Shown piece after piece: positions 12,054 through 36,102 of a stretch of 64,000 nt of DNA; positions within the stretch are counted from its first letter, which is position 1, and the number at the start of each line of letters is the position of its first letter. A model generated the notes under the pieces. The model saw only the letters and a program-made list of their open reading frames with translations, had not been told where the DNA came from and searched no databases. Both the position numbers and the translations under genes were made by a program. This DNA is from a virus (Duplodnaviria > Caudoviricetes): IMG/VR virus record IMGVR_UViG_3300020046_005360; one strand, written 5' to 3'.

Positions 12054-12272
12054 TTAATAAATTTCATAACTAGGTTCTAAAATATTATCTTTTTTAATAC
12101 ATTCAATAGGATAGTGATATCCGTTTTTACATTCTTTCGGGTAAAAACAATATTCCCTCACATCTTTTACAGTTACTTCTTTACCAATTAAAGCGTCCAT
12201 ACTATCTGTCCAGGAACTCCATTTATTCCTTCTATATGCTCTTTCAATTACAATTTTGTCTCCTATTTTCAT
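12054..12272 (-). CDS. YEIY-tagged small protein (KIGD/KOW-like N-terminus)
   Basis: Ends LEPSYEIY*. Confidence 0.8.
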   Translation of the reverse strand: MKIGDKIVIERAYRRNKWSSWTDSMDALIGKEVTVKDVREYCFYPKECKNGYHYPIECIKKDNILEPSYEIY

Positions 12273-12285
12273 AACAATTTATTTT

Positions 12286-13002
12286 TATTTTGTAATACTT
12301 TTAATTTCTCCTCTATTTATCAGAATTTGTTCTTCTCCATATTTTACTATAGCGTAGTCATCATTCGGGTTATCATAACCAGACTCTATATATTCAACTT
12401 CTATATCGTGGTTACGTTCTTCCCCCACGTTGATCAAAAGTAATATTAAATTTATCTCCTACCTTTAAATCATCATATGTGTATCTACTTGGATTATTCA
12501 CTTTAATTTCATTAATCCCCGCTAATTTTTTCATTCTAGAAATTTGGAGATGTTCTTTCAGGTCCTCAAATTTTTCTAATTTAAATTTAATACCTGCATT
12601 GTTAAGTACAGTTTGTAAAATCTTAGCAGTATTAACTTGTGATGTATTCTTATCCGTAGGGAATAATAATTTATCTCCTCCGTATATATCATAAGTAAGT
12701 AAATTAGGTTTTCCGTCGAAAGATTTGATTAAATCTTCCATAGCTTGTCTCGTCTTGGGAGGAAAAGGAAAACCCTGTTTCTTTTCAAGTGGTTTTTTAT
12801 GAGTAGGTAAGTTTGGACCGAAATGTTTTATAATTGCAGCTTCAACTTCCTTTTTATTCCTTGTATTAATAAGATACTCACCATAATTATCTCTATTTTC
12901 TAATGCAGCAACTACATCTTCTGCACTAGCACCTTGAGGTGTTAAAATAAGGTCTAATTTAGCTGTTTCCCTTGGTGATTGACCTTCTATATTCTCTATC
13001 AT
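12286..13002 (-). CDS. hypothetical (possibly late/virion) protein with RMKKLAGINE-IKVNNP motif; frameshift in G-run ~12425 extends it beyond track end 12412
   Basis: Removing one G gives ...RGEERNHDIEVEY...IKSITK*. Confidence 0.55.
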
Positions 13003-13316
13003 TATTTGTTTTTATAATTATTTAACGCTACATATAATTGATCTTTAATCTGAGCAGCATGACCTCCTATGAATATACCTTCAAGTGAAACCAATAATTC
13101 CTCACTATAGTAAGCTACTTGTTCTAAGTATTCTTGTTGAGAAAATTGATTTTCTCCCAAATTAACAGTAAGTACTGTTTGAGGTAAATTAACTAAATGA
13201 TCGTCATTGGATATGAAATCAGTTATTATTTCATCAGGTTTCGAGAATGTAACAGGTTCTGTGATTTTGGATTTTTCTCCGATTATATCGCTTGATACTA
13301 CTTGTTTCTTTGCCAT
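13002..13316 (-). CDS. hypothetical protein
   Basis: ORF track; TAATG-coupled to downstream gene. Confidence 0.6.
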   Translation of the reverse strand: MAKKQVVSSDIIGEKSKITEPVTFSKPDEIITDFISNDDHLVNLPQTVLTVNLGENQFSQQEYLEQVAYYSEELLVSLEGIFIGGHAAQIKDQLYVALNNYKNK

Positions 13317-13636
13317 AATTAATATATTTATTTGTAAAATTTAACTGGTTTATCCAATTTAAATTCAACTCCATCTACATAATAAATATTACTATAGCCT
13401 ATGAAGTTAGGATTTCTTTCTTCTGTAAGGGTCTGAGTCTTGTCTATTCGAGTAAACTCAATTTTAACCCCATTTACTAAAACTTGTTTCATGATAATGC
13501 TACTATTAATATTGTTGATATTATTGCTATAATACTGAAAATAAATATACTTCCTCTTTTATATTGTGTTTCCATCTCTTGTTTCTTTTTGTAATAATTT
13601 TCTAAATTCACACTTACTAAATTAATTTATTAATCC

Positions 13637-13906
13637 TCAATAAATATCATATATTGGTTCTGAATAAATATCATTTGGTACTAGTTCAAAATACTCTCTA
13701 TCTAAATTAATAGAGTATCTATTCTTTTCGGGATGAAACCAAAGTGAATTATTATCCCAATTTGATTTTAAAACCCAAGTTTTATCTCCTACTCGTAAAT
13801 CAGGAGGAAAAGAATGACTATAACTATGATTACCTTTATAAGGTCTAACTAATGTAATCCATACTACTTCTTTACCTTTCGGTATTTCACTATATTTGTA
13901 ACTCAT
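13637..13906 (-). CDS. YEIY-tagged small protein (YDIY variant)
   Basis: Ends SEPIYDIY*; own promoter at ~13926. Confidence 0.8.
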   Translation of the reverse strand: MSYKYSEIPKGKEVVWITLVRPYKGNHSYSHSFPPDLRVGDKTWVLKSNWDNNSLWFHPEKNRYSINLDREYFELVPNDIYSEPIYDIY

Positions 13907-14416
13907 AACTTATAATTAATTTTATGTAAATATACGAATAAATTTTCAAGAAATTTTTACCCTGTGTATATACTTTTGAAATTGGATACTCAAAATTTTT
14001 TTGAAAGAGATTTGCATTTCATATAATTGCATTCCAAACCGGCATTTCGGGATATAAGTATATATTTTGGGAATGGGTTGTAAAGTTTTACTCGTTATGG
14101 ATTTTGGTCTAATGCCTTCCCGCCGCATCCCGGCCCTTTGCATGGACCGCAACGATGCGATATACTATTTCCCCAACGTGAATAATACTTTATTACCACT
14201 ATATTCCCATTTCATTACATCAAATTTATCTTTAATTTCTTGAACATGAACACTACCTGATATAGATAATTTATAACCATTATCCAATATTGTTACAATA
14301 TTTTGTTTGTAACCCATTTGTGATAGGGTTTCCTTAATTTCAAAACTATTCATATACTTAATTTTGGCCACCAAAAGCACCTACAATGAGGTGCTATGTG
14401 GTTAAGTGATTCTTAA

Positions 14417-14956
14417 TTATACTTCAGTACCACCACTCAACATGTTTTCAAGTACGTTTTCCGCTTCAGCATCAACGATAGCTTCTACCTCACTAACAAC
14501 CGGTTCAACATTCTTAAATGCTGGTCTACCACGTTTCACTTTACCAACTAAAGCAAGTCGTTTTTGACGTTCACTTTCAGGATTGATTGCACGACCTAAT
14601 TTAAGTGTACCCTCAGCACGTTTTGCTGCTAAAGCTGCTTGTTTGATATTCCAAGCACTCGTTGGATCAGCCGGTCTACCTCTACCAGCCATACCTTTTT
14701 GACTTAACCTAATTTGACGTGGTGAATTAGGATCAATAGGACGACCTCTACGTTCTGTTTTAACCTCTTCCTCAACCACAGCTGGTGTATTGGCTAAATG
14801 GTATTCATTAATTCTAGCATCTAATTCAAATGCTTTACCTTTGGTATCTAAACCTAATGCTTTCGCTTCCGCTACTAACGCTTTGTAATCAAATTTTCCT
14901 TGTTCTGAAACTAATACTGTTGTTTCTGTCGGTTTTTTAAATGCGTGTTTGTTCAT
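14417..14956 (-). CDS. putative DNA-binding protein: SAP/Rho-N-like helix pair plus four AT-hook-like (RGRP) repeats
   Basis: YKALVAEAKALGLDTKGKAFELDARI; RRGRP, GRGRP, LGRA, KRGRP; terminator 14373-14396. Confidence 0.7.
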   Translation of the reverse strand: MNKHAFKKPTETTVLVSEQGKFDYKALVAEAKALGLDTKGKAFELDARINEYHLANTPAVVEEEVKTERRGRPIDPNSPRQIRLSQKGMAGRGRPADPTSAWNIKQAALAAKRAEGTLKLGRAINPESERQKRLALVGKVKRGRPAFKNVEPVVSEVEAIVDAEAENVLENMLSGGTEV

Positions 14957-15025
14957 GACCTTAATTTTTAATGATTAAAATAAATTTTACTAATTTTCGA
15001 ATTGTTATATTATTAAATTTCTATA

Positions 15026-15397
15026 TTGTAAATATACGATTAGTATATTATAAATCCACTACCTGAATTATATTATTTTTAATCATTAAATTTAATTTTT
15101 CCAATACAAGTATAGGTTTTATTCCTTCCTCTTTACTTATTTTATTAGAAAATTCTTCTAAAGAAATGAAGTTATTTTCACAATAATCTCCACTTTCATA
15201 CATACCTGCATCTGCAATTAATCTTTCGTTATCATTGAAATCTTCATAATAGTCATAATCTTCATTTTCAACTAAATTGTTGATTCTCTCTAATTCTATT
15301 TTTGAATTTGGTGTTAATTTAATTTCCATTTTATTATATTTTATATTTTTATTTATCTTATTTTGTAAATATACGATTAGTATATTATAAATCCACT
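15026..15397. repeat. 35-bp perfect direct repeat (15026-15060 and 15363-15397) containing the early promoter
   Basis: TTGTAAATATACGATTAGTATATTATAAATCCACT x2. Confidence 0.85.
15048..15329 (-). CDS. acidic hypothetical protein (true start MEIKLTPNSK at 15329)
   Basis: Track start 15506 runs through promoter DNA; internal ATG follows the promoter. Confidence 0.65.
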   Translation of the reverse strand: MEIKLTPNSKIELERINNLVENEDYDYYEDFNDNERLIADAGMYESGDYCENNFISLEEFSNKISKEEGIKPILVLEKLNLMIKNNIIQVVDL

Positions 15398-15594
15398 TCC
15401 TTATATAAATAACTTTCTTTTTCCACCATACAATTTCCAAGAAATGTAATTGTAAATAATGACTAAAATTGACTTTTTCATAACTGATTGTTTTAATTAT
15501 TAACATTTTACTTAAACGATTAAGTAACTTACTTAATCTTACTTTGGTAAATATACGAACGTATTATTTATATAACACGTCCGTATATAATATG

Positions 15595-15909
15595 TTAAAT
15601 GTTTTTAACCCACAATGGGAGTTTTAAATTTTCTAATACCCATATCGTATCTTTCCTCCCATGTTTTTCAATTTCAATAATGATATTATTGTAACCATGT
15701 TCTTTTCTAACTCTAGTAATAACCCAATTCATTTCATAATAATTATTATTTATTGGGTATTCTTTTGGTTTTATAACACAATGTCCATTATTATCCAATT
15801 CACAATCTCCCCAAAATTTTTGTTTTAATATATGTAATTCATTACCTATTGGGTATAAATTTTGACACTCATTTAATAACTCTTTCGAATAAACATAAAA
15901 TACACTCAT
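15595..15909 (-). CDS. hypothetical protein
   Basis: ORF track; own promoter ~15944. Confidence 0.6.
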   Translation of the reverse strand: MSVFYVYSKELLNECQNLYPIGNELHILKQKFWGDCELDNNGHCVIKPKEYPINNNYYEMNWVITRVRKEHGYNNIIIEIEKHGRKDTIWVLENLKLPLWVKNI

Positions 15910-16439
15910 AATTGATTTGTTTATATTATTTAAATCTTATATTGTAAATATACGAACATATAATTAGTAAATCTCGTCCCTAATTAAGTAATTATTAGGT
16001 TTCAATAGCAACGACCTCGTTCATATAAACAAAGAATTACCTAAAATAGACATTAATGAATGTTATTAGGTATTGGTATTATATCAGACGGTAAGAACGT
16101 TATTATAGTTACCTTAATTATGTTACGTTCTTGCTCCTGCACTTACCTCATTCTTATACGTACTATGACGGGAGGGTCGGATTTCACTACTAATGACGTG
16201 TATAAATACCAAATATTTCTAGGAACTTGTATATACTTTTAAAGTTAGTAACGAGGGACGTGGAAAATGCATGCAAGTTCTAGACATGACTAGCTCAACT
16301 CTAGTTTTCGTTTATCTAACTCATCGTTTAGAGCGCTCTAAACTTCCATTTTCATCACCCACAAACACTTATTAGATATATCACCCACTTGAAGCCTGCG
16401 ATATAACATGCTATTCTTCATTAAACACGACACTCTATG

Positions 16440-16703
16440 TTAATATATTTCATATACAGTATCCACTTTATTATCGCTTATTAACACGATATCATTAAAT
16501 TGGAATATCCAATGGCCATCATTCCTTTTACGTGGCATTGTAATACCACGACCACTATCCATATAAATGTTATATGAATTATCTATGTCCTGTCCCAAAT
16601 AACAATTCATTAATCCCTTGTTATTCCATCCTCTAGGACAACCATCTGACCATTGTTTATCACGAATGAATTCTTCCCTAGTTTTGAATCTATACTTTGC
16701 CAT
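16440..16703 (-). CDS. YEIY-tagged small protein (KYRF.T.EEF family, paralog of 24460)
   Basis: Ends DTVYEIY*. Confidence 0.8.
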   Translation of the reverse strand: MAKYRFKTREEFIRDKQWSDGCPRGWNNKGLMNCYLGQDIDNSYNIYMDSGRGITMPRKRNDGHWIFQFNDIVLISDNKVDTVYEIY

Positions 16704-16744
16704 AGCTGAATTGTTTATAAATTTATAAATATACGAACGACATA

Positions 16745-17488: not shown

Positions 17489-17548
17489 GACTATTTAATT
17501 TATTAATTTTGGGTAAATATACGATTATATTATTAGTATAACTCGTCC

Positions 17549-17773
17549 CTAATAAATTTCATAAACAGGATTAATTTCTTTCCTTTCGTATGGTTTGAAT
17601 GAAGTATAAGACCAACTTCTTGTTTTGAATCCATTTCTGTTATATCCATTACCTTCAATAACGACACCACTAAATGTTTTACTTTGTCCAATAGGAGAAG
17701 TTAAACCATCTTCCAAGGCTTCGACTATTTGTCCTAATTTTGAAATGTATAGATTTCCTTTAATTATTTCCAT
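17549..17773 (-). CDS. YEIY-tagged small protein
   Basis: Ends INPVYEIY*. Confidence 0.8.
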   Translation of the reverse strand: MEIIKGNLYISKLGQIVEALEDGLTSPIGQSKTFSGVVIEGNGYNRNGFKTRSWSYTSFKPYERKEINPVYEIY

Positions 17774-17775
17774 GG

Positions 17776-18081
17776 CTAGTAAATTTCGTAAATTGGTTGT
17801 TGTGGTCTTTGTTTTAAATATGATTCTTTACTCATATATTTGTTCTTCTCTATACAGTATTCTAACCAACCGATTTCTTCATTAGTTGCTTCTCGATATG
17901 TTCTTTTTTGGCCATTTCCACCATAACTCCAATCAGCATTTTTATTATAACATCCTTTATTTATGAATTGTGCTTTACTACGATAATACCCATCATCATC
18001 TAATCTTCCATTAGATAATGCTATACCTATCATCCAAAAACCTCCACTATCTTCTACTTTGTAATATTTACCCTCTTCCAT
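17776..18081 (-). CDS. YEIY-tagged small protein (T.EE..WL..CI family)
   Basis: Ends QQPIYEIY*. Confidence 0.8.
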   Translation of the reverse strand: MEEGKYYKVEDSGGFWMIGIALSNGRLDDDGYYRSKAQFINKGCYNKNADWSYGGNGQKRTYREATNEEIGWLEYCIEKNKYMSKESYLKQRPQQPIYEIY

Positions 18082-19086: not shown

Positions 19087-19281
19087 TTAAAGAAAATAAT
19101 ATTTATTATGTAATTTTGAAGGTTTTATTTCTAGTGGAAAATGAGCAAAATATTCACCTTTTAAAGTAAATCCATCTAAATGTTTCCATCCTAAATTATG
19201 TAATCTTATTTCCATTTTTAATCCTTCTTCATTATTAATTAGAATAGGAAATTTAGGTGTATTTGGATTATTTACTTTCAT
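19087..19281 (-). CDS. MK(V/I)NNP-family hypothetical protein
   Basis: MKVNNPNTPKFPILI...LGW...FP. Confidence 0.7.
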   Translation of the reverse strand: MKVNNPNTPKFPILINNEEGLKMEIRLHNLGWKHLDGFTLKGEYFAHFPLEIKPSKLHNKYYFL

Positions 19282-19357
19282 AACTATTTATTTTTATTTG
19301 GGTAAATATACGAATATAGTATGGATAAGAAAAGACCCTCAACTGAGAGTCTTATAA

Positions 19358-19585
19358 TTATTTATCATCAAGTTTAATTATTGATTTGATTTTACCATCA
19401 TTTGTCATATGAATTTTATATATATGGAGAGTATCCATCACTAAATGATTCCATGAATCTAATCTATATATTTTAGCTTTCGGATATCGTGTTTGGAGAA
19501 ACATTATATCTTCTTCTACTGATGTAATAAATACACAACTACTTAATAATACTATTAATAACAGAGTAAATAATAACTTTTTCAT
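19358..19585 (-). CDS. putative lipoprotein
   Basis: MKK + hydrophobic stretch + lipobox LSSC. Confidence 0.65.
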   Translation of the reverse strand: MKKLLFTLLLIVLLSSCVFITSVEEDIMFLQTRYPKAKIYRLDSWNHLVMDTLHIYKIHMTNDGKIKSIIKLDDK

Positions 19586-19853: not shown

Positions 19854-20048
19854 CTAATAAATTTCGTAATTAGGTTCTTGGTTAATTAATTCCAAATGAT
19901 CTAAATTGCAATTCCAACAATGTCTATCTTTTCCTCTATCTCCACCTGAGTGTCCATTAATATCTTCATCAAATTCTACTAATAGAACAGAATTAGTTAT
20001 ATTTAATATAGCCCCCAGTTTTCCCTGATATTTTATTTGGTATTTCAC
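19854..20048 (-). CDS. YEIY-tagged small protein (SH3-like, GHS...HCW)
   Basis: Ends QEPNYEIY*. Confidence 0.8.
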   Translation of the reverse strand: MKYQIKYQGKLGAILNITNSVLLVEFDEDINGHSGGDRGKDRHCWNCNLDHLELINQEPNYEIY

Positions 20049-20631: not shown

Positions 20632-20913
20632 TTAATATATTTCGTAAGTTGGTTCAACGTTTTTGTTTAATACTAATCTGGAGAAGTCTGAGAATGATAT
20701 TATTTCAAAACCAATCATAGAATTGGATTCTTTACTCAAACATCCACCATTATATTTATCTCCTACCATTCTCATATAATAATCAAGAGCGTCTTGATTT
20801 GTCCAACTACTACAACCCTCTTCAATAGCTAATGGAGTTGCATAATCTGCAATAATTTTTGCTTCTTTATTGTTGGTGGCCTTTATAGCCCAATTTTCTG
20901 GTAGTTTTTCCAT
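20632..20913 (-). CDS. YEIY-tagged small protein (W(C/A)I...ISF..F family)
   Basis: Ends VEPTYEIY*; tandem paralog of 20916. Confidence 0.8.
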   Translation of the reverse strand: MEKLPENWAIKATNNKEAKIIADYATPLAIEEGCSSWTNQDALDYYMRMVGDKYNGGCLSKESNSMIGFEIISFSDFSRLVLNKNVEPTYEIY

Positions 20914-20915: not shown

Positions 20916-21200
20916 CTAGTAAATTTCGTATGTTGGTTCTGATTTAGGTTGTCTAAATGCTAGGTTTTCGAAGTCTTCAAATGATATTTGTGTATAACCA
21001 TCATTTATTGCCTTAAAAATACTTTTTCCTCCACCTTTGTATTTACCATTTTCTATTAGGAGTACATACTTTTTGGAATCTGATGTAGACCAACGAAAAC
21101 CATTATATATTCGATTTAATGGATCAGCATAATCAGCGATTAGTATAGCTTCGTGATTGTTTTCAGCTCTTATACACCATTTATTAGGTAATTGCTCCAT
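20916..21200 (-). CDS. YEIY-tagged small protein (W(C/A)I...ISF..F family)
   Basis: Ends SEPTYEIY*. Confidence 0.8.
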   Translation of the reverse strand: MEQLPNKWCIRAENNHEAILIADYADPLNRIYNGFRWSTSDSKKYVLLIENGKYKGGGKSIFKAINDGYTQISFEDFENLAFRQPKSEPTYEIY

Positions 21201-21997: not shown

Positions 21998-22222
21998 TTA
22001 ATATATTTCGTATGTTGGTGAATTAGTTATGGGTTTCCAAACTGTACCTTCATTAAGATATCTTACTACAGTGGGTTTTGCCCAATCACCTCTCGATCCA
22101 TTAAGATTTTCAGATCTAGATATTTGAACATGATTTCTTTTATATGGATGTACTAATATGGTATGCTTTATATTAAAAATATAAAATTCTACTCCAATTA
22201 TGTTATCTTCAGTATATACCAT
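21998..22222 (-). CDS. YEIY-tagged small protein (MxYT.E..IG..F family)
   Basis: Ends NSPTYEIY*. Confidence 0.8.
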   Translation of the reverse strand: MVYTEDNIIGVEFYIFNIKHTILVHPYKRNHVQISRSENLNGSRGDWAKPTVVRYLNEGTVWKPITNSPTYEIY

Positions 22223-22233: not shown

Positions 22234-22515
22234 TTAATATATTTCGTAATTACTTATAGTACCATCTTTAAGTTGGATATTACTAACCTTATTAAATCCT
22301 GGATCATCGGGATATTGACATTTCCAACCATACTTATAATTAAAACCTGATCTTTCGACTATTGACGCCCAACCACCACATCTTTGATCTTGGATTATAT
22401 AATAATTACCATCTAAATAATATATTTTGGCTGATGGGATCTCCCTATGTTCTATCTTACAAGATATTTCTTTACCTGATAAATCTGGAGTTAGTATTTT
22501 TAATTTCCATAACAT
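22234..22515 (-). CDS. YEIY-tagged small protein
   Basis: Ends ISNYEIY*. Confidence 0.8.
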   Translation of the reverse strand: MLWKLKILTPDLSGKEISCKIEHREIPSAKIYYLDGNYYIIQDQRCGGWASIVERSGFNYKYGWKCQYPDDPGFNKVSNIQLKDGTISNYEIY

Positions 22516-22584: not shown

Positions 22585-23043
22585 TTACAATGCAGTTAAT
22601 GATCCTGCTAATTTTGCTAAGAAAATTGATTTTTGATCTTCTTGTGATAAGAACGTTCTTGCTTCTGATTGTAAAGCTTTCAATTTATCCAACTCATCTT
22701 TGTGAGTGATGATAGCAATTCTCAATTTGATATCATTTTTCCAATCTTCTACTGAACCACCATCCACTACGAATTCTGGATATGATTCTACTCCCAAATC
22801 TTCTGCTGATTTAGCATATGCATTTGCTCTACCAGAAACTGATGAAAATGCTTTAACTAAATTATCAATTTTGGTTTCTTTTGACAAATCTCCAAAACCG
22901 GCTAAATTCATTGTTGTTTTGAATTTACTTGTTTCGATTCCTTTGAATGATTTGATTTTTATTTCAATCGCATCCAAGATTGATGGAATTGTAAATTGAC
23001 CTTCTAATGCTAAACCTGTTTCTACTTTTGCAGCTGTACTCAT
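22585..23043 (-). CDS. hypothetical protein, probably highly expressed
   Basis: Three tandem promoters upstream, terminator 22539-22558 downstream. Confidence 0.75.
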   Translation of the reverse strand: MSTAAKVETGLALEGQFTIPSILDAIEIKIKSFKGIETSKFKTTMNLAGFGDLSKETKIDNLVKAFSSVSGRANAYAKSAEDLGVESYPEFVVDGGSVEDWKNDIKLRIAIITHKDELDKLKALQSEARTFLSQEDQKSIFLAKLAGSLTAL

Positions 23044-23099
23044 AATCTTTGTTTTTAATTTAATTGTTTGTTAATTATTGTTTTTATTAATTTTACTTT

Positions 23100-23330
23100 G
23101 TAAATATACGAATTTAAATTTTGGAATCCTAATTGTTTTACGAAAATCTTTATTTTCTTTTTAGGACTTTATGGATCAAAACTTACATTAATATATGAAC
23201 TTTAATACTTTGTAAATATACGATTCTAATTTTTGGAATCCAAATTTACTTTTAAGAAAAGTTTGAAATGTTTTTTATTTTAATACTTATCTTATTTTGT
23301 AAATATACGAATTCAAATTTTAATATCAAA
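23100..23330 (-). promoter_or_regulatory. three tandem Bacteroidota-type early promoters
   Basis: (T/A)TCGTATATTTAC at ~23100, ~23212, ~23299; the 23212 copy has TTTG 20 nt upstream. Confidence 0.8.
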
Positions 23331-23613
23331 ATGATTTATAAAAGCTTTTTAAAATAATATTTCGACTTACAGACCCATTGGTAATTGCGAAAACGGCAGT
23401 TTGTGTTTAATTTAAGTTACTCACTTCGGTGGTTATTATGTAATTAGGCATATAGTGTAACACTTTTATAAATCAAAATTTCAAATAACTTATTAAAATA
23501 TAGAAATTTAATGATAAGGCACCATAATCTGTCCTTCCTTCTCGGTATAAATTAATTACTAATCTATCTTTAAATTTCTATGTTGTAAATATACGAATTT
23601 TTATTTGGGAAAC

Positions 23614-23847
23614 CTAATAAATCTCGTAATTAGGTTCTTGAAGTATTAATTTTTCGGGTCGTTGTTCCTCTAATTCTAATTTTCCTTCCCACACAGCCCA
23701 TATATTTCCTCCTCTATCTGATATATAATTATCCCATTTTACTTCAGGAGATTGATGTAATTCCATCACAGTTCCTAATTCACCCTGTGGTACGTAGCTA
23801 CCAGTACTTATCATGCGTACTCGATCACCTATTTGAAATTTTGCCAT
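23614..23847 (-). CDS. YEIY-tagged small protein (KIGD/KOW-like); true start MAKFQIGDRV
   Basis: Ends QEPNYEIY*; track start overlaps the tRNA-like element. Confidence 0.8.
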   Translation of the reverse strand: MAKFQIGDRVRMISTGSYVPQGELGTVMELHQSPEVKWDNYISDRGGNIWAVWEGKLELEEQRPEKLILQEPNYEIY

Positions 23848-23859
23848 GATTATTTTATT

Positions 23860-23993
23860 TGGAGTTAAGATGGGACTCGAACCCACACTGTGTACCCGTC
23901 GTGACGCATTATCGCGGAGCAGTACTATTTCACTATACTTACTCTATTTTATACTCACTTGCGAGGCGTTCTACCAATTGGACAACTTAACTC
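23860..23993 (-). ncRNA. tRNA-like RNA (134 nt) with expanded central domain in place of an anticodon arm
   Basis: 8-bp acceptor GAGTTAAG/CTTAACTC, D loop AATTGGTA, T arm GTGGG-TTCGAGT-CCCAT. Confidence 0.65.
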
Positions 23994-23998: not shown

Positions 23999-24274
23999 TT
24001 AATATATTTCGTATTGTGGTGTTTTATTCTCTATTAGATCAAGAATTTCTTGATATGGAATTATATTTTTACTTCCTGCTCTATGACCACAAACTCCCTC
24101 ATAACTATATCCAAAATATTCGTAATCAAAATATTTTTCTTCAATTCTTATTTCAGTAGTATAATACATTTTATTACCACTATCTTCCAAAAATTGACTT
24201 AATTTAATAAAATCTTTAAATAGTATTCCCTTGGTATCAATGTAATCATTTTCTCCTAATATATAATTTGCCAT
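23999..24274 (-). CDS. YEIY-tagged small protein
   Basis: Ends KTPQYEIY*. Confidence 0.8.
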   Translation of the reverse strand: MANYILGENDYIDTKGILFKDFIKLSQFLEDSGNKMYYTTEIRIEEKYFDYEYFGYSYEGVCGHRAGSKNIIPYQEILDLIENKTPQYEIY

Positions 24275-24459: not shown

Positions 24460-24699
24460 TTAGTAAATTTCATAAGTTGGTTCATTACTTATTAATACGT
24501 AATTATTTTCTCTAAAAGACCATCTATCAAAATGAAAATCATAATTACCATCACATCGGGAATTAAATTCTTCTGGGATAGGTTGACCTAGATATTTATT
24601 CATTTCTCTATCATCATTCCAACCTATTGGATATCCACCACTATGCCATCTTCCAATTTCCCTAAATTCTTCCTTTGTTCTAAATCTATACTTAATCAT
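24460..24699 (-). CDS. YEIY-tagged small protein (KYRF.T.EEF family)
   Basis: Ends NEPTYEIY*. Confidence 0.8.
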   Translation of the reverse strand: MIKYRFRTKEEFREIGRWHSGGYPIGWNDDREMNKYLGQPIPEEFNSRCDGNYDFHFDRWSFRENNYVLISNEPTYEIY

Positions 24700-24701: not shown

Positions 24702-24983
24702 CTAATAAATTTCGTATGTTGGTTCTTTGTTTAAATATTCTATTATATTGAAATAATCTTCTTTACTATATTCATCACGATAACCATATTGTCCATTATC
24801 ATATAATATTTCGGTTTTATCTCCACTTACTCCAGTGATAATTCCTTTATCACCTACGTTCGCAAAATATAAACCTAATTTTAATCCAAAACCATTCGAA
24901 GTTTTTCCACCACTAGTTGTTATTATTCTATCCCCAATTTTATATCCAAAACTTGATGGACTTATTTCTCCACTACCTTTCAT
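24702..24983 (-). CDS. YEIY-tagged small protein (KIGD/KOW-like)
   Basis: Ends KEPTYEIY*. Confidence 0.8.
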   Translation of the reverse strand: MKGSGEISPSSFGYKIGDRIITTSGGKTSNGFGLKLGLYFANVGDKGIITGVSGDKTEILYDNGQYGYRDEYSKEDYFNIIEYLNKEPTYEIY

Positions 24984-25878: not shown

Positions 25879-26134
25879 CTAATAAATTTCGTATTTAGGT
25901 TCTACTTTTTGTCTAGATATAACTACTGCCCAAACGTTTCTCTCACCACAATATATTTGACATGAACCAAAGAATATATGAATATTCCCATAAAAATATG
26001 GATCATTTTTCTTTACGTATAGAAGATAGTTTTATTGTAACAGTATCAATATTACATCCAAATCCTTTTCTACTAATTTCATCACCAATAGAATAATTAT
26101 CCCTTGCGTACTGTAATTTTTCTTCGTCGTTCAT
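25879..26134 (-). pseudogene. frameshifted YEIY-tagged gene
   Basis: MNDEEKLQYARDNY... then shifted frame ...QKVEPKYEIY*; indel in A-run ~26031. Confidence 0.7.
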
Positions 26135-26410: not shown

Positions 26411-26650
26411 TTAGTAAATTTCGTAATTAGGTTCATCTGATATTAATTTAAGAGCTTTAACATATACTCCAACATGTCTTCCACTTTCCCAAGCAACGTT
26501 CCCCTGATTAGAAGTATCAGTAATTCTATGTACTATAAATTTGTACTCGGGACTATAACCCGCCCCACCATATTTTGGTCCTTTACCATTTGACTCTGAT
26601 TCGAAACCAGGGATGCAAATCACTTCATCACCAATTTTAAATTTACTCAT
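26411..26650 (-). CDS. YEIY-tagged small protein (KIGD/KOW-like)
   Basis: Ends DEPNYEIY*. Confidence 0.8.
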   Translation of the reverse strand: MSKFKIGDEVICIPGFESESNGKGPKYGGAGYSPEYKFIVHRITDTSNQGNVAWESGRHVGVYVKALKLISDEPNYEIY

Positions 26651-27764
26651 AACTATTTCGATCTATGTTAATAATTTTCGGGAACCTTAATGAACCATCA
26701 ACTGTATATTCAAAATATTTAACGGTAGCTTGTTTTCCTATCAATGTTTCTTTAATAGCAAATAATTCTTCTAAATATTGCATGGTTCCGTTTATAGTGC
26801 AGTCTACAGCAACGCCATCCACGTCTACTTTGAGTGTAGCGAGTTTACCTGCAAACTTGCCCAATCCCTCTGCATAACCTATGATCTTGAATTCTTCGTC
26901 CACAAACGTCTTATGTTTAATCAGCGATTTACTGCGCTTATTTTCATATAAAGAATTGGGAACACGGAGTATTTGGCCTTCAAAACCATCTGCGATATAT
27001 TCGGCTAATTTTGTGTGGATTTCTTCTTCGTAACCAATAGAATATGTAGGTGTTATAACTAATAATTTTGATTGTATTTCATCTAGTATATCTAATGTTT
27101 TTAACATCCTATCATAGAACCCATAATCATTGTTATCCCAATTAGGTAAATCGTATACCCAATAGTTAATATATTGTTTAGATATCTCTAAATCTTCTGT
27201 GGTTGGTTTGGTTTTACGAACACAAGATATAATAGTATTGAAATCTACATCTTTATTACTTGTGTATAACTCTCCATCTAATATTAAATCAGGATATTTA
27301 TCAAATATATGTTTAATACTATCGAATATATGGGGAGCAGATAATACTTCTTTACCTGTTCTAGACCACATTCCGTCTGATTTGATTATGCACCTCATAC
27401 CATCCAGTTTCGGTTGACTCAGAATTGGGTATGATATTGTTTTAATTTTATCAAAATCAGTAGCTAACATTGGAGCGTAGAATGTTTTCTTATCACAATC
27501 TTCAATATTCTCGTGATGACCTAAATCCTTACGTTTTTGCCACATCTGTGTTGCCTCGAATATAGCTTGTTGTTCAGGAGTAGTTTCATTCTTTTTACCA
27601 ATGTTTTTACCCACACAACGAGTTGGTTCATTTTGGAATTGCTTCATCCCTACAAAACCACTCGTACTATAATAACTATCTCCATCGATGGTTATATCCC
27701 ATTGATTGATGTTATTTTTTGAATTGCTTCGTTTATATAAAGTAGGTAATTTAATAGATTTCAT
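26643..27764 (-). CDS. lig: ATP-dependent DNA ligase
   Basis: PMLA, KLDGMR (motif I), LDGELY, EGQILR, KRS..LIKHK, SLRFP. Confidence 0.95.
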   Translation of the reverse strand: MKSIKLPTLYKRSNSKNNINQWDITIDGDSYYSTSGFVGMKQFQNEPTRCVGKNIGKKNETTPEQQAIFEATQMWQKRKDLGHHENIEDCDKKTFYAPMLATDFDKIKTISYPILSQPKLDGMRCIIKSDGMWSRTGKEVLSAPHIFDSIKHIFDKYPDLILDGELYTSNKDVDFNTIISCVRKTKPTTEDLEISKQYINYWVYDLPNWDNNDYGFYDRMLKTLDILDEIQSKLLVITPTYSIGYEEEIHTKLAEYIADGFEGQILRVPNSLYENKRSKSLIKHKTFVDEEFKIIGYAEGLGKFAGKLATLKVDVDGVAVDCTINGTMQYLEELFAIKETLIGKQATVKYFEYTVDGSLRFPKIINIDRNSYE

Positions 27765-28035
27765 ATTGTGGTGTTTCAGGATTATTAATTTCAGTTACAT
27801 CGAATGGTATACCTAACCTTTCATATTCGTTGATTTCGAATTGAGTTGCGTAACGCCAATTCTTTTTATTTTTATATTGTAAAGAATTATTACCGTTTTT
27901 TTTACTTCCTTTTATATCGGCGTATGGACTTATTGATTGGCTGTCTTGTCTTTGTTTAAAACAAAAATTTTCTCTAACACAATGACTTCCTTGAGTAGTA
28001 ATTAGACAAACTATATAATCGTCTTTTTTAAACAT
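27751..28035 (-). CDS. YEIY-tagged small protein (MFKKDDYIV...WRYAT family, paralog of 35336)
   Basis: Ends ETPQYEIY*. Confidence 0.8.
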   Translation of the reverse strand: MFKKDDYIVCLITTQGSHCVRENFCFKQRQDSQSISPYADIKGSKKNGNNSLQYKNKKNWRYATQFEINEYERLGIPFDVTEINNPETPQYEIY

Positions 28036-28045: not shown

Positions 28046-28291
28046 TTAATAAATTTCGTAACTAGGTTCTTGATTGGTCATCTCTCTAAATTGTTCTATC
28101 GTAATTTCTTTAGCATCGTTATAAAAAGAATTACGGGGAGCTCCATGACATCCATTATGATATGAACACCCATCAAACCCTACACACTCTTGTCTCCAAA
28201 TTATAATACCTTTTACTTTATATTTTTCAGCTAAATATTCTCTAACTTCAGGATATTTATTTTCTATAAACCAATATTTATGTAATTCCAT
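28046..28291 (-). CDS. YEIY-tagged small protein
   Basis: Ends QEPSYEIY*. Confidence 0.8.
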   Translation of the reverse strand: MELHKYWFIENKYPEVREYLAEKYKVKGIIIWRQECVGFDGCSYHNGCHGAPRNSFYNDAKEITIEQFREMTNQEPSYEIY

Positions 28292-28346: not shown

Positions 28347-28590
28347 TTAATAAATTTCATAATTAGATTCAATATTTTGTCCTAATATATCTCTTTGAAA
28401 TTCTTCTAAAGTAAGTTCTTTCTTACCTACATGAGGTTTTGAAGTAGAATAACATAAATATGTTCCATCCTAATAACCATCCTTTAAATTGAAAATCTTT
28501 TACAGTTATTTTTGAAACTAAAGTTTTCCAATATGGAAGTAAAATATGCTTATTTTCTTTTGTGATTCTTATACACCATTTACTTTCCAT
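28347..28590 (-). pseudogene. frameshifted YEIY-tagged gene (WCI family)
   Basis: MESKWCIRITKEN... then shifted frame ...ELTLEEFQRDILGQNIESNYEIY*. Confidence 0.7.
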
Positions 28591-29093: not shown

Positions 29094-29606
29094 TTAATAA
29101 ATTTCGTAAGTTGGTTCACCACCTTGGATTAATTGTTCGAATTGTTTGTATGTCATTGGGTTAGTAACTTGTTTCCGACTACTAGTTACCCATTTACCTT
29201 TTGCGTTGAAACGGAAGTTATTTTGGAATTGATTAGCTCCCGGATAATGGTAATGGGGATTTGAACTATATTCTGAATGAGATGGATATTTATGTTTTTT
29301 TAGTAACTTATATATTTTCTCTCTTTCTTCAACTGTTGCTGTTAGGTGAGTTACACCATCCCCTTCTTTAAATTGATATTTCATATTTGATATTTCGTGA
29401 TTAGGTTCTATATTATTTATTGGAGTAAGTAATGTTACCGTTTTTCCAACTCTGTCGTTAATCCATTTAGTGTTATATCCATTGTATTTATATCCACTTT
29501 TATATGTAAAGATTAAATGATCTCCATTACCTCCAGAAGATATAGTATATTCACTAGTTCCTATTAAAAATTTAACTCCTAATAGTTGTTCTTTAGTATA
29601 TTTCAT
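29094..29606 (-). CDS. YEIY-tagged protein, in-frame fusion of two modules
   Basis: Internal EPNHEISN-MKYQ; ends GEPTYEIY*. Confidence 0.8.
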   Translation of the reverse strand: MKYTKEQLLGVKFLIGTSEYTISSGGNGDHLIFTYKSGYKYNGYNTKWINDRVGKTVTLLTPINNIEPNHEISNMKYQFKEGDGVTHLTATVEEREKIYKLLKKHKYPSHSEYSSNPHYHYPGANQFQNNFRFNAKGKWVTSSRKQVTNPMTYKQFEQLIQGGEPTYEIY

Positions 29607-30045
29607 ATCGAGGTTCTTGATTTGGAGTAGTAACTAGAGTTATATCATTTTTCCATATCATATTATTTACTCTTTCAACAGTATAACCTGTATAAAAATA
29701 ATTTGGATCTGAGGGTTTATGAAATTTTAAACCATCTAAATCATCACTACTTGATATTATATAATGTGATGTACCTTGAGTAAATTCCAATCCAATTAAT
29801 TGTTCTTTAGTATATTTCATAATTAATATTTCGTATGTTGGTTCTGGCATTGGTTCTAATCTAAATGATTTGGATTTAATATTTGAATTTACCCAATCAA
29901 TGGTAAAAGAGTCATTGGTATGAATTTTATGTGTTTTAGCGTCTTTAAAATCGAACCTACTTCTATTTTCATTATATGAAAGAATATAAGTAGAACCAAC
30001 ATGTTTTAAAGTTCTTCCGATTAATTGTTCTTTAGTATAGTCCAT
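29593..30045 (-). CDS. YEIY-tagged protein, in-frame fusion of two MxYTKEQL modules
   Basis: Internal EPTYEILI-MKYTKEQL; ends QEPRYEIY*. Confidence 0.8.
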   Translation of the reverse strand: MDYTKEQLIGRTLKHVGSTYILSYNENRSRFDFKDAKTHKIHTNDSFTIDWVNSNIKSKSFRLEPMPEPTYEILIMKYTKEQLIGLEFTQGTSHYIISSSDDLDGLKFHKPSDPNYFYTGYTVERVNNMIWKNDITLVTTPNQEPRYEIY

Positions 30046-30047: not shown

Positions 30048-30326
30048 CTAATAAATTTCATAATTAGTTGATAATTCTGGTTTAGGTGCTAGCCTACCTA
30101 TTTTTATACAATCTTCTAACCAAGTTCGTTCTTCATAGGTTGGTTCTATATTTTGTCTCCATCCATGGCTACCAGAATTCCTCCTAAAATCCCCACCACC
30201 ATTTTTAGTTATATATAATCTAAAACTAGCAGTATTTTCACCATCTAGACCACACATCCAAATATATTTTACTCCAGTTGAAATTTCATCTATAGCTGTG
30301 TATATGTTTCCTTTAATTAATTCCAT
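30048..30326 (-). CDS. YEIY-tagged small protein (T.EE..WL..CI family)
   Basis: Ends STNYEIY*. Confidence 0.8.
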   Translation of the reverse strand: MELIKGNIYTAIDEISTGVKYIWMCGLDGENTASFRLYITKNGGGDFRRNSGSHGWRQNIEPTYEERTWLEDCIKIGRLAPKPELSTNYEIY

Positions 30327-30931: not shown

Positions 30932-31131
30932 TTAGTAAATTTCGTATGTTGGTTCATCTATTACTACTTCATATTTCGTACCTATTGCTTCCATTTCTAC
31001 TGAATATGAATTTTGGGAAGGAAATGAGTATACATTTTCTCTCCCTTTTATATGAACTCCTATTTCTCCTTTCTTTACCCTACCTGAATTTGGGTAATCT
31101 TTTAATGCTCTTAATTTTTAGGATATCCCAT
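30932..31131 (-). pseudogene. frameshifted YEIY-tagged gene
   Basis: MGYPK[+A]KLRALKDY...VIDEPTYEIY*; one A missing in A-run ~31115. Confidence 0.75.
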
Positions 31132-31133: not shown

Positions 31134-31355
31134 CTAGTATATTTCATATTGAGGTTCACTTGCTTTAACAACTTCTAGACATGATATTCCAACCCGTCCT
31201 TCTTGAACAGAATTCTTATATCCTTTTAATAATACTCCAGTTTCTCCACAGTAACCGTTAGGTACTATTTTAAGAATGGTATATTCTTTACCAATACTAC
31301 CCTTACCAAAACCCTTACCACTCACTGTTACTTTTACTTTATCTCCTATTTTCAT
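31134..31355 (-). CDS. YEIY-tagged small protein (KIGD/KOW-like)
   Basis: Ends SEPQYEIY*. Confidence 0.8.
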   Translation of the reverse strand: MKIGDKVKVTVSGKGFGKGSIGKEYTILKIVPNGYCGETGVLLKGYKNSVQEGRVGISCLEVVKASEPQYEIY

Positions 31356-32104: not shown

Positions 32105-32419
32105 TTAATAAATTTCGTATTGTGGTTTTAGTTTTATTCTATCTTTTGGAATAAATTTATTAGCAGCTATACAATTGTCCAACCATTGTCTTTCTTCCCA
32201 AGTTACTAAATGTACTGCTCTTTCACCCCCTATATATGGTGTTGTAGCGCTTCTATATTCCCATTTACCATCCATATTACTAATACATGAACCTTTAATT
32301 CTTTCCAAATCTATGTCTCCACGACCATCCTTATCTGGTCCTTCATTTTTGGTTATTAAAAAGGTGTCACCTTTCATAATTTTGTAATATTCTCCAACTA
32401 TTAAGTCTGTTGATTTCAT
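32105..32419 (-). CDS. YEIY-tagged small protein (T.EE..WL..CI family)
   Basis: Ends LKPQYEIY*. Confidence 0.8.
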   Translation of the reverse strand: MKSTDLIVGEYYKIMKGDTFLITKNEGPDKDGRGDIDLERIKGSCISNMDGKWEYRSATTPYIGGERAVHLVTWEERQWLDNCIAANKFIPKDRIKLKPQYEIY

Positions 32420-32421: not shown

Positions 32422-32673
32422 CTAGTATATTTCGTATTGAGGTTCGTCAAAATAAAATTCCAAATCACATTCTAAAAATCCACTTTGGGGTCTTTTCATA
32501 CTACTCCCCAATACTATTTCATATTGCTCTATTCTAACAATATAAGCAAATTTTTGGGATTTTATAGAATTCGTTATTAATGAACAACGTTCTAATGATG
32601 TACCTACTGATTTAGTAGTAGGTATTTTGACTTTATCCCCAACTTTAAATTTTTTCATCTTCTTTCCACTCAA
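32422..32673 (-). CDS. YEIY-tagged small protein (KFKVGD/KOW-like)
   Basis: Ends DEPQYEIY*. Confidence 0.8.
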   Translation of the reverse strand: MSGKKMKKFKVGDKVKIPTTKSVGTSLERCSLITNSIKSQKFAYIVRIEQYEIVLGSSMKRPQSGFLECDLEFYFDEPQYEIY

Positions 32674-34063: not shown

Positions 34064-34318
34064 TTAATAAATTTCGTAATTAGGTTCTACGTTTTGTTTT
34101 AATATTTCTGTTTGGAATTCTTGGAATGTTAAAACGTTTCCTTTAGGTCTTGTATAATATACATCCCCAGGTTTAATTCCATAAATATAATAATATGATA
34201 TCGCGGGGTCAGTTTGGTACATTTTGTTATTACATACATTACCCCAATTTTCATCAAACCACTTACTAATAATAAATGCTTCTTCTTTATTTCCAGGTTT
34301 AATACACCACATTTCCAT
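34064..34318 (-). CDS. YEIY-tagged small protein (WCI family)
   Basis: Ends VEPNYEIY*. Confidence 0.8.
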   Translation of the reverse strand: MEMWCIKPGNKEEAFIISKWFDENWGNVCNNKMYQTDPAISYYYIYGIKPGDVYYTRPKGNVLTFQEFQTEILKQNVEPNYEIY

Positions 34319-34320
34319 AA

Positions 34321-34611
34321 TTAGTATATTTCGTAAGTTGGGTTAATTTCTTTTCCTAGAACCAATTCTTTGAATTCATCAAATGTTAATTCTCTATAGT
34401 CAGAATGATCAAAATCCTCTCTATTTCTACTTATAGAATTAGTATTACTAAATCCATGTCCTATATTTTTATATCCAGGTTTTAAAATATTCTCACTATA
34501 ACAGTATCCACTGTAGGATGAATAAATACTATTATTAGGATCTAATTTATTCATAAATTCGTTTACTACATCACCATTTTCATATGTTCTTTTTATACAC
34601 CACTTTTCCAT
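34321..34611 (-). CDS. YEIY-tagged small protein (WCI family)
   Basis: Ends INPTYEIY*. Confidence 0.8.
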   Translation of the reverse strand: MEKWCIKRTYENGDVVNEFMNKLDPNNSIYSSYSGYCYSENILKPGYKNIGHGFSNTNSISRNREDFDHSDYRELTFDEFKELVLGKEINPTYEIY

Positions 34612-34661
34612 AACTTTATTATTTATATTGTAAATATACGAAATTTTATTTGAAAATCAAA

Positions 34662-34988
34662 CTATTCTTCATCTTTAATAGAAAATACTATCTTTTCGAA
34701 ATTGCGTACTCTAGCAGCTATTTCGTATTTCTGGTTTTTAACAAAGTAATTCTTCATCTCCATGAAAGCATCTCCCCACTCCTTTTCATATATAGATAAA
34801 AATTCAACATCATCATCTGATTCTGTAATTTCTATCCTATATATGTCTACAGTTTGGACTTCTTGTTTAGATTTCCATGATTTCTCTAATTTATCTAAAG
34901 TATATAAATGGACTTCTTCTTCACTTTCTTCATAAAAGTCGAACATATCATCATAGTCTCGAAACTTTAATAGTTTTAACTTTCCCAT
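34662..34988 (-). CDS. hypothetical protein with C-terminal UVR-like motif
   Basis: FVKNQKYEIAARVRN. Confidence 0.55.
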   Translation of the reverse strand: MGKLKLLKFRDYDDMFDFYEESEEEVHLYTLDKLEKSWKSKQEVQTVDIYRIEITESDDDVEFLSIYEKEWGDAFMEMKNYFVKNQKYEIAARVRNFEKIVFSIKDEE

Positions 34989-35335
34989 TCTTTAATATTT
35001 TTGTTGTTGTAGCATCTTCTGGAAAACGACCATTGTGATATTCAGTTAGATCTAATTCAATTTGTTCAATTCTTTGCTTATCTTCCTTCGTTACACGTTT
35101 TTTACGTTCACTTCCTTTCGTAATATATTTTTTATTTAAAGTATCTAATTCTTTTAATAACTTTTCTGAGAAAGCATATTGAGGATCATCTATTTCTACG
35201 CTTAATGGAGTATGTTTAGATATATTTAAATCCCATTCCCATTTATATCTTGTTCCGTCTTTGTCTTGGAAATGCTGAGTGTATTTAAGTATTGGTGTTA
35301 TATTCTCAACTGGGCGACCTTTATTACTACTCTTA

Positions 35336-35632
35336 CTAATAGATTTCATAATTTGGTTCGTAATTCTGTTTAGTTACATCGAAAGGTTTACCTAATTCAT
35401 CGTATTTAGCAATTTCTTGAGGAGTTGCGTAACGCCAATCTTTTAAAAATTTGGATTTATCAAAAGACATGACTTCATGTCCATTCGTATTAGTTCCAGA
35501 CATATCAATTACTGGGTATATACCATAATTATCTATTCTTTGTTTAAAACAATAGTTTGTCCTAGCACAATTATAACCATCAAATTCATCTTTTAATTTC
35601 AATGTAACTATATAATCGTCTTTTTTAAACAT
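35336..35632 (-). CDS. YEIY-tagged small protein (MFKKDDYIV family)
   Basis: Ends YEPNYEIY*. Confidence 0.8.
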   Translation of the reverse strand: MFKKDDYIVTLKLKDEFDGYNCARTNYCFKQRIDNYGIYPVIDMSGTNTNGHEVMSFDKSKFLKDWRYATPQEIAKYDELGKPFDVTKQNYEPNYEIY

Positions 35633-35641
35633 AATTTTTAT

Positions 35642-35866
35642 TTAATAAATTTCGTAATTAGGTTCATAATTTGGTATTTCTTCTGGTAAAGCCCACCTAA
35701 ATGAATTTTGATGTAAACTAAACTCGTCACTTATTCCTTCATTATGTAATCCTTTGGAAGAAATTATAGCTCTATCTCCTCTCCAACTTATAACTTCACA
35801 AACACGACCAATATTTTCTGGATATGTTCCCCAACCTCCTTTTGTTATTACTATATATTCTTCCAT
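35642..35866 (-). CDS. YEIY-tagged small protein
   Basis: Ends IPNYEPNYEIY*. Confidence 0.8.
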   Translation of the reverse strand: MEEYIVITKGGWGTYPENIGRVCEVISWRGDRAIISSKGLHNEGISDEFSLHQNSFRWALPEEIPNYEPNYEIY

Positions 35867-35868
35867 AA

Positions 35869-36102
35869 CTAGTATATTTCGTAATTAGGTTCTAAATAAC
35901 CCCATTTAGTTAATAATATATTCGCTTTATCTCCACAATATTTACCTTCCAATGTTTGGTATAATCCGTATTCTAAACTATAATTAATAATATATACTAA
36001 TTCATCATAGTCAGATGTTTTAGGTATATTATCCATAGTATAATTGGAACCGTAGTGTTTATCGTAATTTCCCATATTTATCTCCTTTTTATATAATCCC
36101 AT
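35869..36102 (-). CDS. YEIY-tagged small protein
   Basis: Ends LEPNYEIY*. Confidence 0.75.
   Translation of the reverse strand: MGLYKKEINMGNYDKHYGSNYTMDNIPKTSDYDELVYIINYSLEYGLYQTLEGKYCGDKANILLTKWGYLEPNYEIY

Follow-up and report, generated by a model that had tools for sequence, protein, structure and literature searches.

A shared C-terminal peptide on many small proteins of an uncultured phage, and a linked gene as candidate for its partner

Aromatic C-terminal tails constitute the clamp motif of the T4 phage family. The tails of T4 gp43, gp33 and gp55, all directed at the gp45 clamp, illustrate how several phage proteins can address one phage partner through a short, unstructured, aromatic C-terminus. 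In phage T7, gp2.5 and gp4 carry acidic, Phe-terminated tails that share a single site on the T7 DNA polymerase and, as in the T4 tails, it is the free terminal aromatic residue that matters. Here we describe an arrangement reminiscent of these systems in an uncultured virus of the Caudoviricetes (Duplodnaviria), IMG/VR record IMGVR_UViG_3300020046_005360, of which a stretch of 64,000 nucleotides (henceforth, the window) was analyzed. Within it, 28 open reading frames (ORFs) for small proteins end with Tyr-Glu-Ile-Tyr or, in one case, Tyr-Asp-Ile-Tyr, immediately followed by a stop codon. We refer to this end, in its longer form (E)-P-x-Y-E-I-Y, as the tail or tag, number its residues backward from the last one (−1), and call the rest of each protein its body. 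An untagged gene for a 152-residue protein lies amid the array of tagged genes.

An extreme C-terminal hydrophobic or aromatic peptide, as in the T4 clamp tails, is thus found on all 28 ORFs. The resemblance ends there. The T4 and T7 tails sit on two to four replication or transcription proteins, whereas here about 30 unrelated small proteins are involved; the motif is unlike the tail of this phage's own polymerase, and tag-bearing relatives were found without a T4-type clamp, although on incomplete contigs. The ankyrin/PRANC proteins of poxviruses (F-box-like) obey a comparable logic, with variable bodies, a constant C-terminal handle, tandem arrays and quick turnover. However, PRANC folds into a domain of some 30-40 amino acids that follows ankyrin repeats and docks onto host Skp1, whereas the conserved part of the tail spans 4-7 residues, disordered in the model of the one body family folded, and follows unrelated folds. 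C-terminal degrons (the ssrA tag ..ALAA with ClpXP and SspB, the non-polar tails recognized by FtsH and Tsp) are likewise short, terminal and portable to any body, and the ssrA adaptor SspB, a protein of about 160 residues, can read part of the tag. They differ from the present case in that their sequence is unrelated, the tail is encoded rather than added and varies by lineage among phages, and no link to a protease was found. Finally, encapsulin cargo peptides and the capsid-targeting sequence of T4 internal proteins exemplify short shared peptides that address unrelated proteins to one structure. The T4 sequence, however, is N-terminal and cleaved, and encapsulin and T4 cargo genes are late or capsid-linked, whereas the tail is C-terminal and its genes lie behind predicted early, host-type promoters, on the replication side and far from the structural genes.

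The endings E-I-Y, S-I-F and K-I-Y, the latter two from related phages, fit the class II/III PDZ ligand pattern (hydrophobic or acidic at −2 and hydrophobic at 0 in PDZ numbering); no PDZ domain was detected among the window proteins scanned with Pfam. Mimicry of the C-terminal tip of the single-stranded DNA-binding protein (D-D-D-I-P-F) was considered and rejected, since other lineages have a basic or neutral residue at −3 (FKIY, YSIF) or end in Asn (PxIFN). A literature search for the motif, or for shared C-terminal tags of phage early proteins, found nothing relevant, in agreement with the original prediction, made from the sequence of the window, which knew of no described phage system of this kind. 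None of the systems compared above is a library of some 30 unrelated phage proteins with a 4-7 residue end that changes in concert and is linked to a dedicated gene.

The tail and the proteins that bear it

Scanning the window in six frames recovered exactly the 28 tagged ORFs that had been predicted, all on the minus strand between positions 12054 and 36102, 64 to 170 amino acids long and accounting for about one fifth of the ORFs called in the 64 kb. Three further copies, predicted to be frameshifted, proved to be real, start-less frames ending in the tail. The complete set is as follows:

12054..12272, minus strand: tagged ORF, 72 amino acids, KIGD/SH3-like body, ends EPSYEIY
13637..13906, minus strand: tagged ORF, 89 amino acids, ends EPIYDIY
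16440..16703, minus strand: tagged ORF, 87 amino acids, KYRF.T.EEF family, ends DTVYEIY
17549..17773, minus strand: tagged ORF, 74 amino acids, ends NPVYEIY
17776..18081, minus strand: tagged ORF, 101 amino acids, AT.EE..WL..CI family, ends QPIYEIY
19854..20048, minus strand: tagged ORF, 64 amino acids, ends EPNYEIY
20632..20913, minus strand: tagged ORF, 93 amino acids, LPxKW.I..ITFEEF family; in the model, folded body 1-82 and disordered tail 83-93
20916..21200, minus strand: tagged ORF, 94 amino acids, LPxKW.I..ITFEEF family, as the preceding ORF
21998..22222, minus strand: tagged ORF, 74 amino acids, M.YT..NIIG family, ends SPTYEIY
22234..22515, minus strand: tagged ORF, 93 amino acids, ends ISNYEIY, homologues in contigs G001 and G005
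23614..23886, minus strand: tagged ORF, 90 amino acids, KIGD/SH3-like body, ends EPNYEIY
23999..24274, minus strand: tagged ORF, 91 amino acids, ends TPQYEIY
24460..24699, minus strand: tagged ORF, 79 amino acids, KYRF.T.EEF family
24702..24983, minus strand: tagged ORF, 93 amino acids, ends EPTYEIY
25879..26031, minus strand: decayed copy, 50-codon frame without start, ends EPKYEIY-stop
26411..26650, minus strand: tagged ORF, 79 amino acids, KIGD/SH3-like body
27751..28035, minus strand: tagged ORF, 94 amino acids, MFKKDDYIV..WRYAT family
28046..28291, minus strand: tagged ORF, 81 amino acids, distant member of the ITFEEF family
28347..28469, minus strand: decayed copy, 40-codon frame without start, ends ESNYEIY-stop
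29094..29606, minus strand: tagged ORF, 170 amino acids, two-unit fusion with a decayed internal tail (EPNHEIS)
29593..30045, minus strand: tagged ORF, 150 amino acids, fusion of two M.YTKEQL units with a vestigial internal tail (EPTYEIL)
30048..30326, minus strand: tagged ORF, 92 amino acids, T.EE..WL..CI family
30932..31117, minus strand: decayed copy, 61-codon frame without usable start, ends EPTYEIY-stop
31134..31355, minus strand: tagged ORF, 73 amino acids, KIGD/SH3-like body
32105..32419, minus strand: tagged ORF, 104 amino acids, T.EE..WL..CI family
32422..32673, minus strand: tagged ORF, 83 amino acids, KVGD/SH3-like body
34064..34318, minus strand: tagged ORF, 84 amino acids, WCI..TFQEF family
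34321..34611, minus strand: tagged ORF, 96 amino acids, WCI..TFDEF family
35336..35632, minus strand: tagged ORF, 98 amino acids, MFKKDDYIV..WRYAT family
35642..35866, minus strand: tagged ORF, 74 amino acids, ends EPNYEIY
35869..36102, minus strand: tagged ORF, 77 amino acids, ends EPNYEIY

When Y[ED]I[YF] was counted on the minus strand in every frame and regardless of ORF length, it stood directly before a stop codon 33 times and in an internal position twice. The plus strand had no terminal site, and 200 codon shuffles, a control that the original prediction had called for, yielded 0.22 such sites on average and two at most. Out of frame, the motif occurs as two short sites (29807 and 18682) and otherwise only as decayed copies. 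The tail is a real, statistically overwhelming and conserved feature.

Alignment of the 28 gene ends bore out a second observation made on the window, namely that the codons of the tail vary synonymously while the peptide stays fixed. Tyr −4 is encoded by TAT or TAC (10 and 18 times, respectively), Ile −2 by ATT, ATA or ATC (16, 10 and 2), Tyr −1 by TAT or TAC (19 and 9) and Pro −6 by CCT or CCA (15 and 13); all three stop codons, TAA, TAG and TGA, are used. The first and second positions of the Y-E-I-Y codons are invariant save for a single GAT (Asp at −3, in ORF 13637). Neither the third positions nor the sequences past the stop are conserved, except that TT-ATG coupling to the following gene is frequent. 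Since variation is confined to the third codon positions and the stop, selection bears on the peptide. The two longest genes are fusions in which the internal tail has degenerated, to EPTYEIL and EPNHEIS, as expected if the motif works only at a free end, and homologous tagged pairs from different phages share 49% identity in the body and 97% in the last four residues. Together, these findings support selection for the peptide as such and for its placement at the terminus. The choice of codon at Tyr −4 has a bias of its own, TAC accounting for 64% of the tails as opposed to 17% of Tyr codons genome-wide. We read this as avoidance of spurious starts, because TAT-GAA at this place would create an out-of-frame ATG. 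One such ATG is in use: in a 14-nt gene overlap at 29593-29606, ORF 29094-29606 takes its start codon from within the Tyr-Glu codons (TATGAA) that belong to the upstream tail, so that the same bases encode YEIY-stop in one frame and M-K-Y-T-K in another.

The original prediction had also held that the bodies fall into apparently unrelated families, and this was borne out. Once the tails were removed, BLAST sorted the bodies of the window into 17 singletons and five small groups. A larger pool of 122 tail-stripped ORFs, drawn from the window and from eight IMG/VR contigs, nine phage sources in all, formed 65 phmmer clusters; among the eight largest, hhalign linked one pair with 75% probability, all other comparisons remaining below 15%. 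Searches of Pfam and PHROGs with the 28 tagged proteins gave no match other than one SH3_12 domain. The LPxKW.I..ITFEEF family was folded with AlphaFold2 from a 25-row alignment. The model has a confident alpha/beta body comprising residues 1-82 (predicted TM score, 0.75), for which no match was found in the PDB, followed by an unstructured tail whose predicted local distance difference test (pLDDT) score falls below 50 at residues 87-91. Comparison of the bodies thus supports the view that they are mostly unrelated, and the model, that the tail would be a disordered extension in this family.

Tags of other phages and the untagged 152-residue protein

Scanning IMG/VR with a DNA pattern for the tail turned up several contigs with multiple sites. 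Five of them carry 31, 18, 6, 9 and 16 YEIY-stops, confined to one strand in each, as compared to 0-1 occurrences of a control pattern. Two such contigs, G004 and G005, have hardly any other genes in common with the window, the replication module of G005 consisting of PolA and a DnaB-type helicase. All 15 database relatives fetched for one of the body families also end in the tail. The DNA pattern for the tail, applied to 185,579 bacterial species genomes, gave no host ORFs with this ending and only 12 chance sites.

Amid the tagged genes of the window lies an untagged gene preceded by a leader of 570 nt:

22585..23043, minus strand: untagged 152-residue helical protein (predicted), family A3/A5, phrog_2574, no Pfam match
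23044..23613, minus strand: ORF-free leader preceding the 152-residue gene, with four tandem copies of the promoter-like motif TCGTATATTTAC (23100, 23212, 23299 and 23585)

The surroundings of distant members of this 152-residue family were fetched from IMG/VR, ENA, JGI and Logan. Small ORFs form arrays there that abut the gene, and within each array the ORFs share a C-terminus that differs from lineage to lineage:

NY[EQKS]I[YF]: locus L065
YEIF / YDIF: locus L078
[YF]SIF: locus L080
Y[NES]IF: loci L082, L084 and L086
YSIF / YDIF: locus L085
F[KSQ]I[YF]: locus L071
YP[IL][YF]: locus L072
FPIY: loci L061, L073 and L087
[TL]LEIF: locus L077
(E)P[LQ]IFN: locus L083, about 20 copies
PEFIFN[IL]: locus L088

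In all, libraries of this kind were found on at least 20 further contigs of uncultured phages, every contig having an ending of its own. The general motif is a hydrophobic or aromatic residue, any residue, Ile or Leu, and an aromatic residue, at or beside the free C-terminus, with each phage lineage keeping all its copies on one version. Three body families (AT.EE..WL..CI, LPxKW.I..ITFEEF and MKYT..NIIG) recur across phages, each time with the resident ending; for instance, homologues of the ORF at 17776..18081 end in FSIY, LEIF, YDIF or EPQIFN in other phages. Across these contigs, then, the tag is seen to follow the phage and not the protein. Unrelated bodies share a tag within a phage and homologous bodies differ in it between phages, which points to a recognition code that stays matched to a single reader in each phage or host; change in concert is what a common reader predicts.

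A closer comparison was made with contig G001 (IMGVR_UViG_3300020045_010841). The order of the replication genes is the same as in the window, while the best-matching tagged cassettes are scrambled; at tail position −5, Gln is found almost everywhere in G001, and Asn, Thr or Gln in the window. These patterns suggest rapid turnover of the cassettes and homogenization of the tag within a genome. An array of another kind was noticed in a 197-kb Logan contig (L068, positions 11000-20500). Its roughly 25 ORFs, 64-92 amino acids long, end in [IVL]-K-[IL]-[LMI] and have an N-terminal G-[DN]-I-[YF] in common as well, so that they may represent one hyper-diverged paralogous family instead of bearers of a portable tag. 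The ORF that adjoins the 152-residue homologue in this contig ends in LYEIW.

The 152-residue protein is the sole untagged protein of the window with homologues in eight of the nine other contigs examined. The eight comprise four loci fetched through the 152-residue gene itself and all but one of the five whole contigs to which the tail DNA pattern had led, and in each the gene lies within the array or at its edge. Considering only contigs ascertained by the tail, the gene is in or next to the array in all seven that are informative; the eighth, G003, lacks it and starts downstream of its expected place. Conversely, at 22 of the 25 loci found through the 152-residue gene, two or more small ORFs within 5 kb have the same last three residues, as compared to one of 22 control blocks. 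Flavobacterium phage immuto, the closest cultured relative (52% identity in the chaperonin), has a complete genome that retains the chaperonin-nuclease-glycosyltransferase synteny; in a search that included positive controls, neither tags nor the 152-residue gene were found in it.

AlphaFold2 predicts the 152-residue protein to be helical (pLDDT, 74). No match was found in Pfam, NCBIfam or the ESM Atlas. Sequence searches of the PDB returned only artificial alpha-repeat noise, and fold searches (Foldseek, VIA) only generic helical hairpins. A tblastn search of 50,697 GenBank phages with four members of the family found nothing. The four tandem consensus promoters of the leader would fit an abundant, stoichiometric partner of the tagged proteins. 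By its linkage and its promoter strength, the protein is the leading candidate for the reader of the tag.

One conserved core enzyme calls for a correction of the original prediction, which saw no tail on core replication, chaperonin or glycosyltransferase genes, in that it has a tail-like end:

47839..48816, minus strand: PD-(D/E)XK nuclease with a 12-residue C-terminal extension ending PSPFEIF (..QPSPFEIF)

The extension is kept in the window, G001 and G002, where it ends in PFEIF or PFTIF, and is missing from the nuclease of the tag-less immuto. Among the genomes compared, the extension is found as a gain of tag-bearing phages only, from which we surmise that an ordinary enzyme was recruited into the same tagging scheme. 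Elsewhere in the window, a protein with a T5orf172/MUG113 domain (3020-3640) ends in ..KKGEPTYY, which resembles the beginning of the tail and lacks its E-I-Y end.

The array in its genome

The window is part of an uncultured, myophage-like genome of 29% G+C, which we assign to a Flavobacterium-type phage; no near relative by DNA was found among the 50,697 GenBank phages. It encodes a replication set of the T4 type (a split family B DNA polymerase, PolB; a gp45-like clamp; a gp44/62 loader), as well as a chaperonin, four glycosyltransferases, the PD-(D/E)XK nuclease and 23 tRNAs. A DNA ligase gene sits within the tagged array. The motif TCGTATATTTAC occurs at 32 sites, against one expected, almost all on the minus strand; in addition to the four in the leader, these include 34630, 37088, 43697, 60084 and 63303. 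Together with a TTTG about 20 nt upstream, the motif resembles the Bacteroidota sigma-A promoter type. The tagged array is studded with these sites, an abundance of host-type promoter motifs that supports the placing of the tagged genes among the early genes, much as originally proposed. No Rfam family was found between 11.5 and 37 kb.

Other features of the window deserve brief mention. The 23 tRNA genes, all on the minus strand, form an array at 4339-11366 in which small ORFs and promoter motifs are interspersed. The polymerase gene is split into an N-terminal part (61079-62881), with a weak intein-splicing match inside it, and a C-terminal part (56973-57878), and between the two lie ORFs that include those for an HNH endonuclease (58751-59437) and for a protein of the zinc-ribbon/DUF723 type (60104-61036). 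A set of three paralogous ORFs, 205-248 amino acids long and probably homing-endonuclease-like, is scattered over the replication and glycosyltransferase region (38258-38875, 46903-47577 and 56224-56970), and a second pair of paralogues is found at 36586-37059 and 59700-60068.

What may read the tail

We propose that (E)-P-x-Y-E-I-Y-COOH would serve as a short, unstructured docking or address peptide. It would be borne by a large, fast-turning-over set of small early proteins whose folds are unrelated and which presumably serve individual functions in host takeover or accessory roles, and one common partner would handle all of them through it. That the tail is an address peptide for a common partner is, in our estimation, probable. 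The modular docking tag of the original prediction thus stands as the best-supported reading, on the strength of the unrelated bodies and of selection on the terminal peptide, while a partner and an effector or adaptor role for the tagged proteins are what we infer from it. The alternative mechanism raised at the same time, modification of a Tyr as in EPIYA motifs, is disfavored as the general mechanism, since Tyr is replaced by Phe, Leu or Asn in other lineages (FKIF, LEIF, PxIFN).

The partner, or an obligatory co-factor, might be the strongly promoted, untagged helical protein encoded at 22585-23043, an identification that we offer tentatively and with some doubt. Several observations weigh against it. 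The 152-residue protein has no recognizable peptide-binding fold, and its family (1122 clusters at 50% identity) greatly exceeds the known tagged families in size. At two or more loci (L069 and L076), no clear tag is seen near the gene, which can apparently exist without an obvious library, and the linkage could partly reflect the fact that both belong to the early region. Moreover, the type of tag does not simply follow the similarity of the 152-residue proteins: copies only 20-23% identical to that of the window (G004, G005/L074) accompany YEIY, and copies 35-50% identical to it accompany SIF, KIY or IFN endings. No column of the family alignment was found whose charge co-varies with tag residue −3. 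When the 152-residue protein (116-row alignment) was modeled in complex with the 34 C-terminal residues of a tagged protein, the score was 0.00 in a run without controls, which speaks neither for nor against binding.

The main rival, and a serious one despite being in our judgment unlikely, is that the reader is encoded by the host. It could be a protease or unfoldase that recognizes C-terminal degrons for the timed turnover of early proteins, or some host hub, the 152-residue gene being then merely a syntenic early gene or having some other role. The strictly terminal position of the tail and the decay of internal copies are as in ssrA-type degrons, although the 33 terminal sites against two internal ones and the decayed copies in fusions are equally expected for any C-terminal docking motif. 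Phages with PolB/T4-like replication and phages with PolA both use YEIY in spite of 152-residue proteins that are about 21% identical, which a shared host factor would explain; indeed, the failure of tag type to track 152-residue similarity fits a host reader at least equally well. The differing endings, too, could reflect differing hosts, given that the G+C content of the locus ranges from 0.26 to 0.43. However, the mere 12 chance sites in the bacterial genomes give no sign of a host motif being mimicked, and a host reader leaves unexplained both the near-universal, often abutting linkage of the 152-residue gene and the gain of a degron by a conserved nuclease.

Docking of the tail onto the sliding clamp, of the T4 gp45 type, or onto another replication protein is suggested by the clamp, loader and split polymerase of the window and by the tail-like PFEIF end of a DNA nuclease. 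We rate it as very improbable: the phage's own polymerase ends in ..IADYFNFS, a different, T4-like tail; tag-bearing G005, L072 and L073 use PolA/DnaB modules; the clamp is present in the window, G001 and G002, with no homologue found in the incomplete contigs G003-G005; and thirty competitors for the clamp are hard to reconcile with replication. The chaperonin was likewise considered as a reader and judged unlikely, no homologue having been found in the same incomplete contigs. Hardly credible is the notion that the motif is a DNA or RNA element, such as the boundary of a recombination cassette or a signal for translation initiation or coupling, with the peptide as its by-product. The many TAG-TT-ATG junctions, the next-gene ATG lodged in the TATGAA of a tail, the excess of TAC at Tyr −4 and the scrambled order of homologous cassettes between the window and G001 would all suit it, but avoidance of out-of-frame ATGs would account for the TAC bias, and variation falls exactly at third positions and in the choice of stop. 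Furthermore, several tails precede long spacers or promoters and no gene, the amino-acid pattern is kept across lineages with quite different codons (Y/F, E/S/K/P), and the motif is absent from the other strand and, apart from decayed copies and the two short sites, out of frame. Least credible of all, to us, is that the tagged proteins all belong to a single family of hyper-diverged paralogues, with a structural C-terminal strand as its conserved end. The proteins are indeed small, similar in size and encoded in tandem, two of the clusters are distantly related to each other, and the L068 array looks like just such a diverged family. Yet most cluster pairs fall below the 15% mark in hhalign, the folds differ (the alpha/beta body as opposed to the SH3-like KIGD bodies), the tail is disordered in the model, and homologous bodies differ in tail between phages while unrelated ones share it within a phage. 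The single homologous family with a structural C-terminus, which the original prediction had named as the case that would undo it, was accordingly not what the clusters, the alignments, the model and the distribution of the tags revealed.

Returning to a common partner that would read the tail, a broader and quite tentative possibility is that the 152-residue family acts as a dedicated hub to which the lineage-specific C-terminal peptide binds. The family and the tagged genes would then constitute a widespread, undescribed "plug-in" system of low-G+C phages, probably of Bacteroidota, whose interchangeable small effector domains pass between phages and are made functional by the resident tag. 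The candidate reader gene and the concerted change of the tag on homologous bodies are the new elements here; such lineage-specific change is the rare, clean mark of a recognition code that co-evolves or is matched to the host. Among the early genes of large phages, small orphans that offer no handle for study predominate. A portable tag would provide a single biochemical entry point, as one peptide could pull down the reader together with the whole set. If the pair is real, it would offer engineering a compact, natural, orthogonal tag and reader. For the phages themselves, the tag would define a rule for the adoption of accessory genes: acquire the resident tag.

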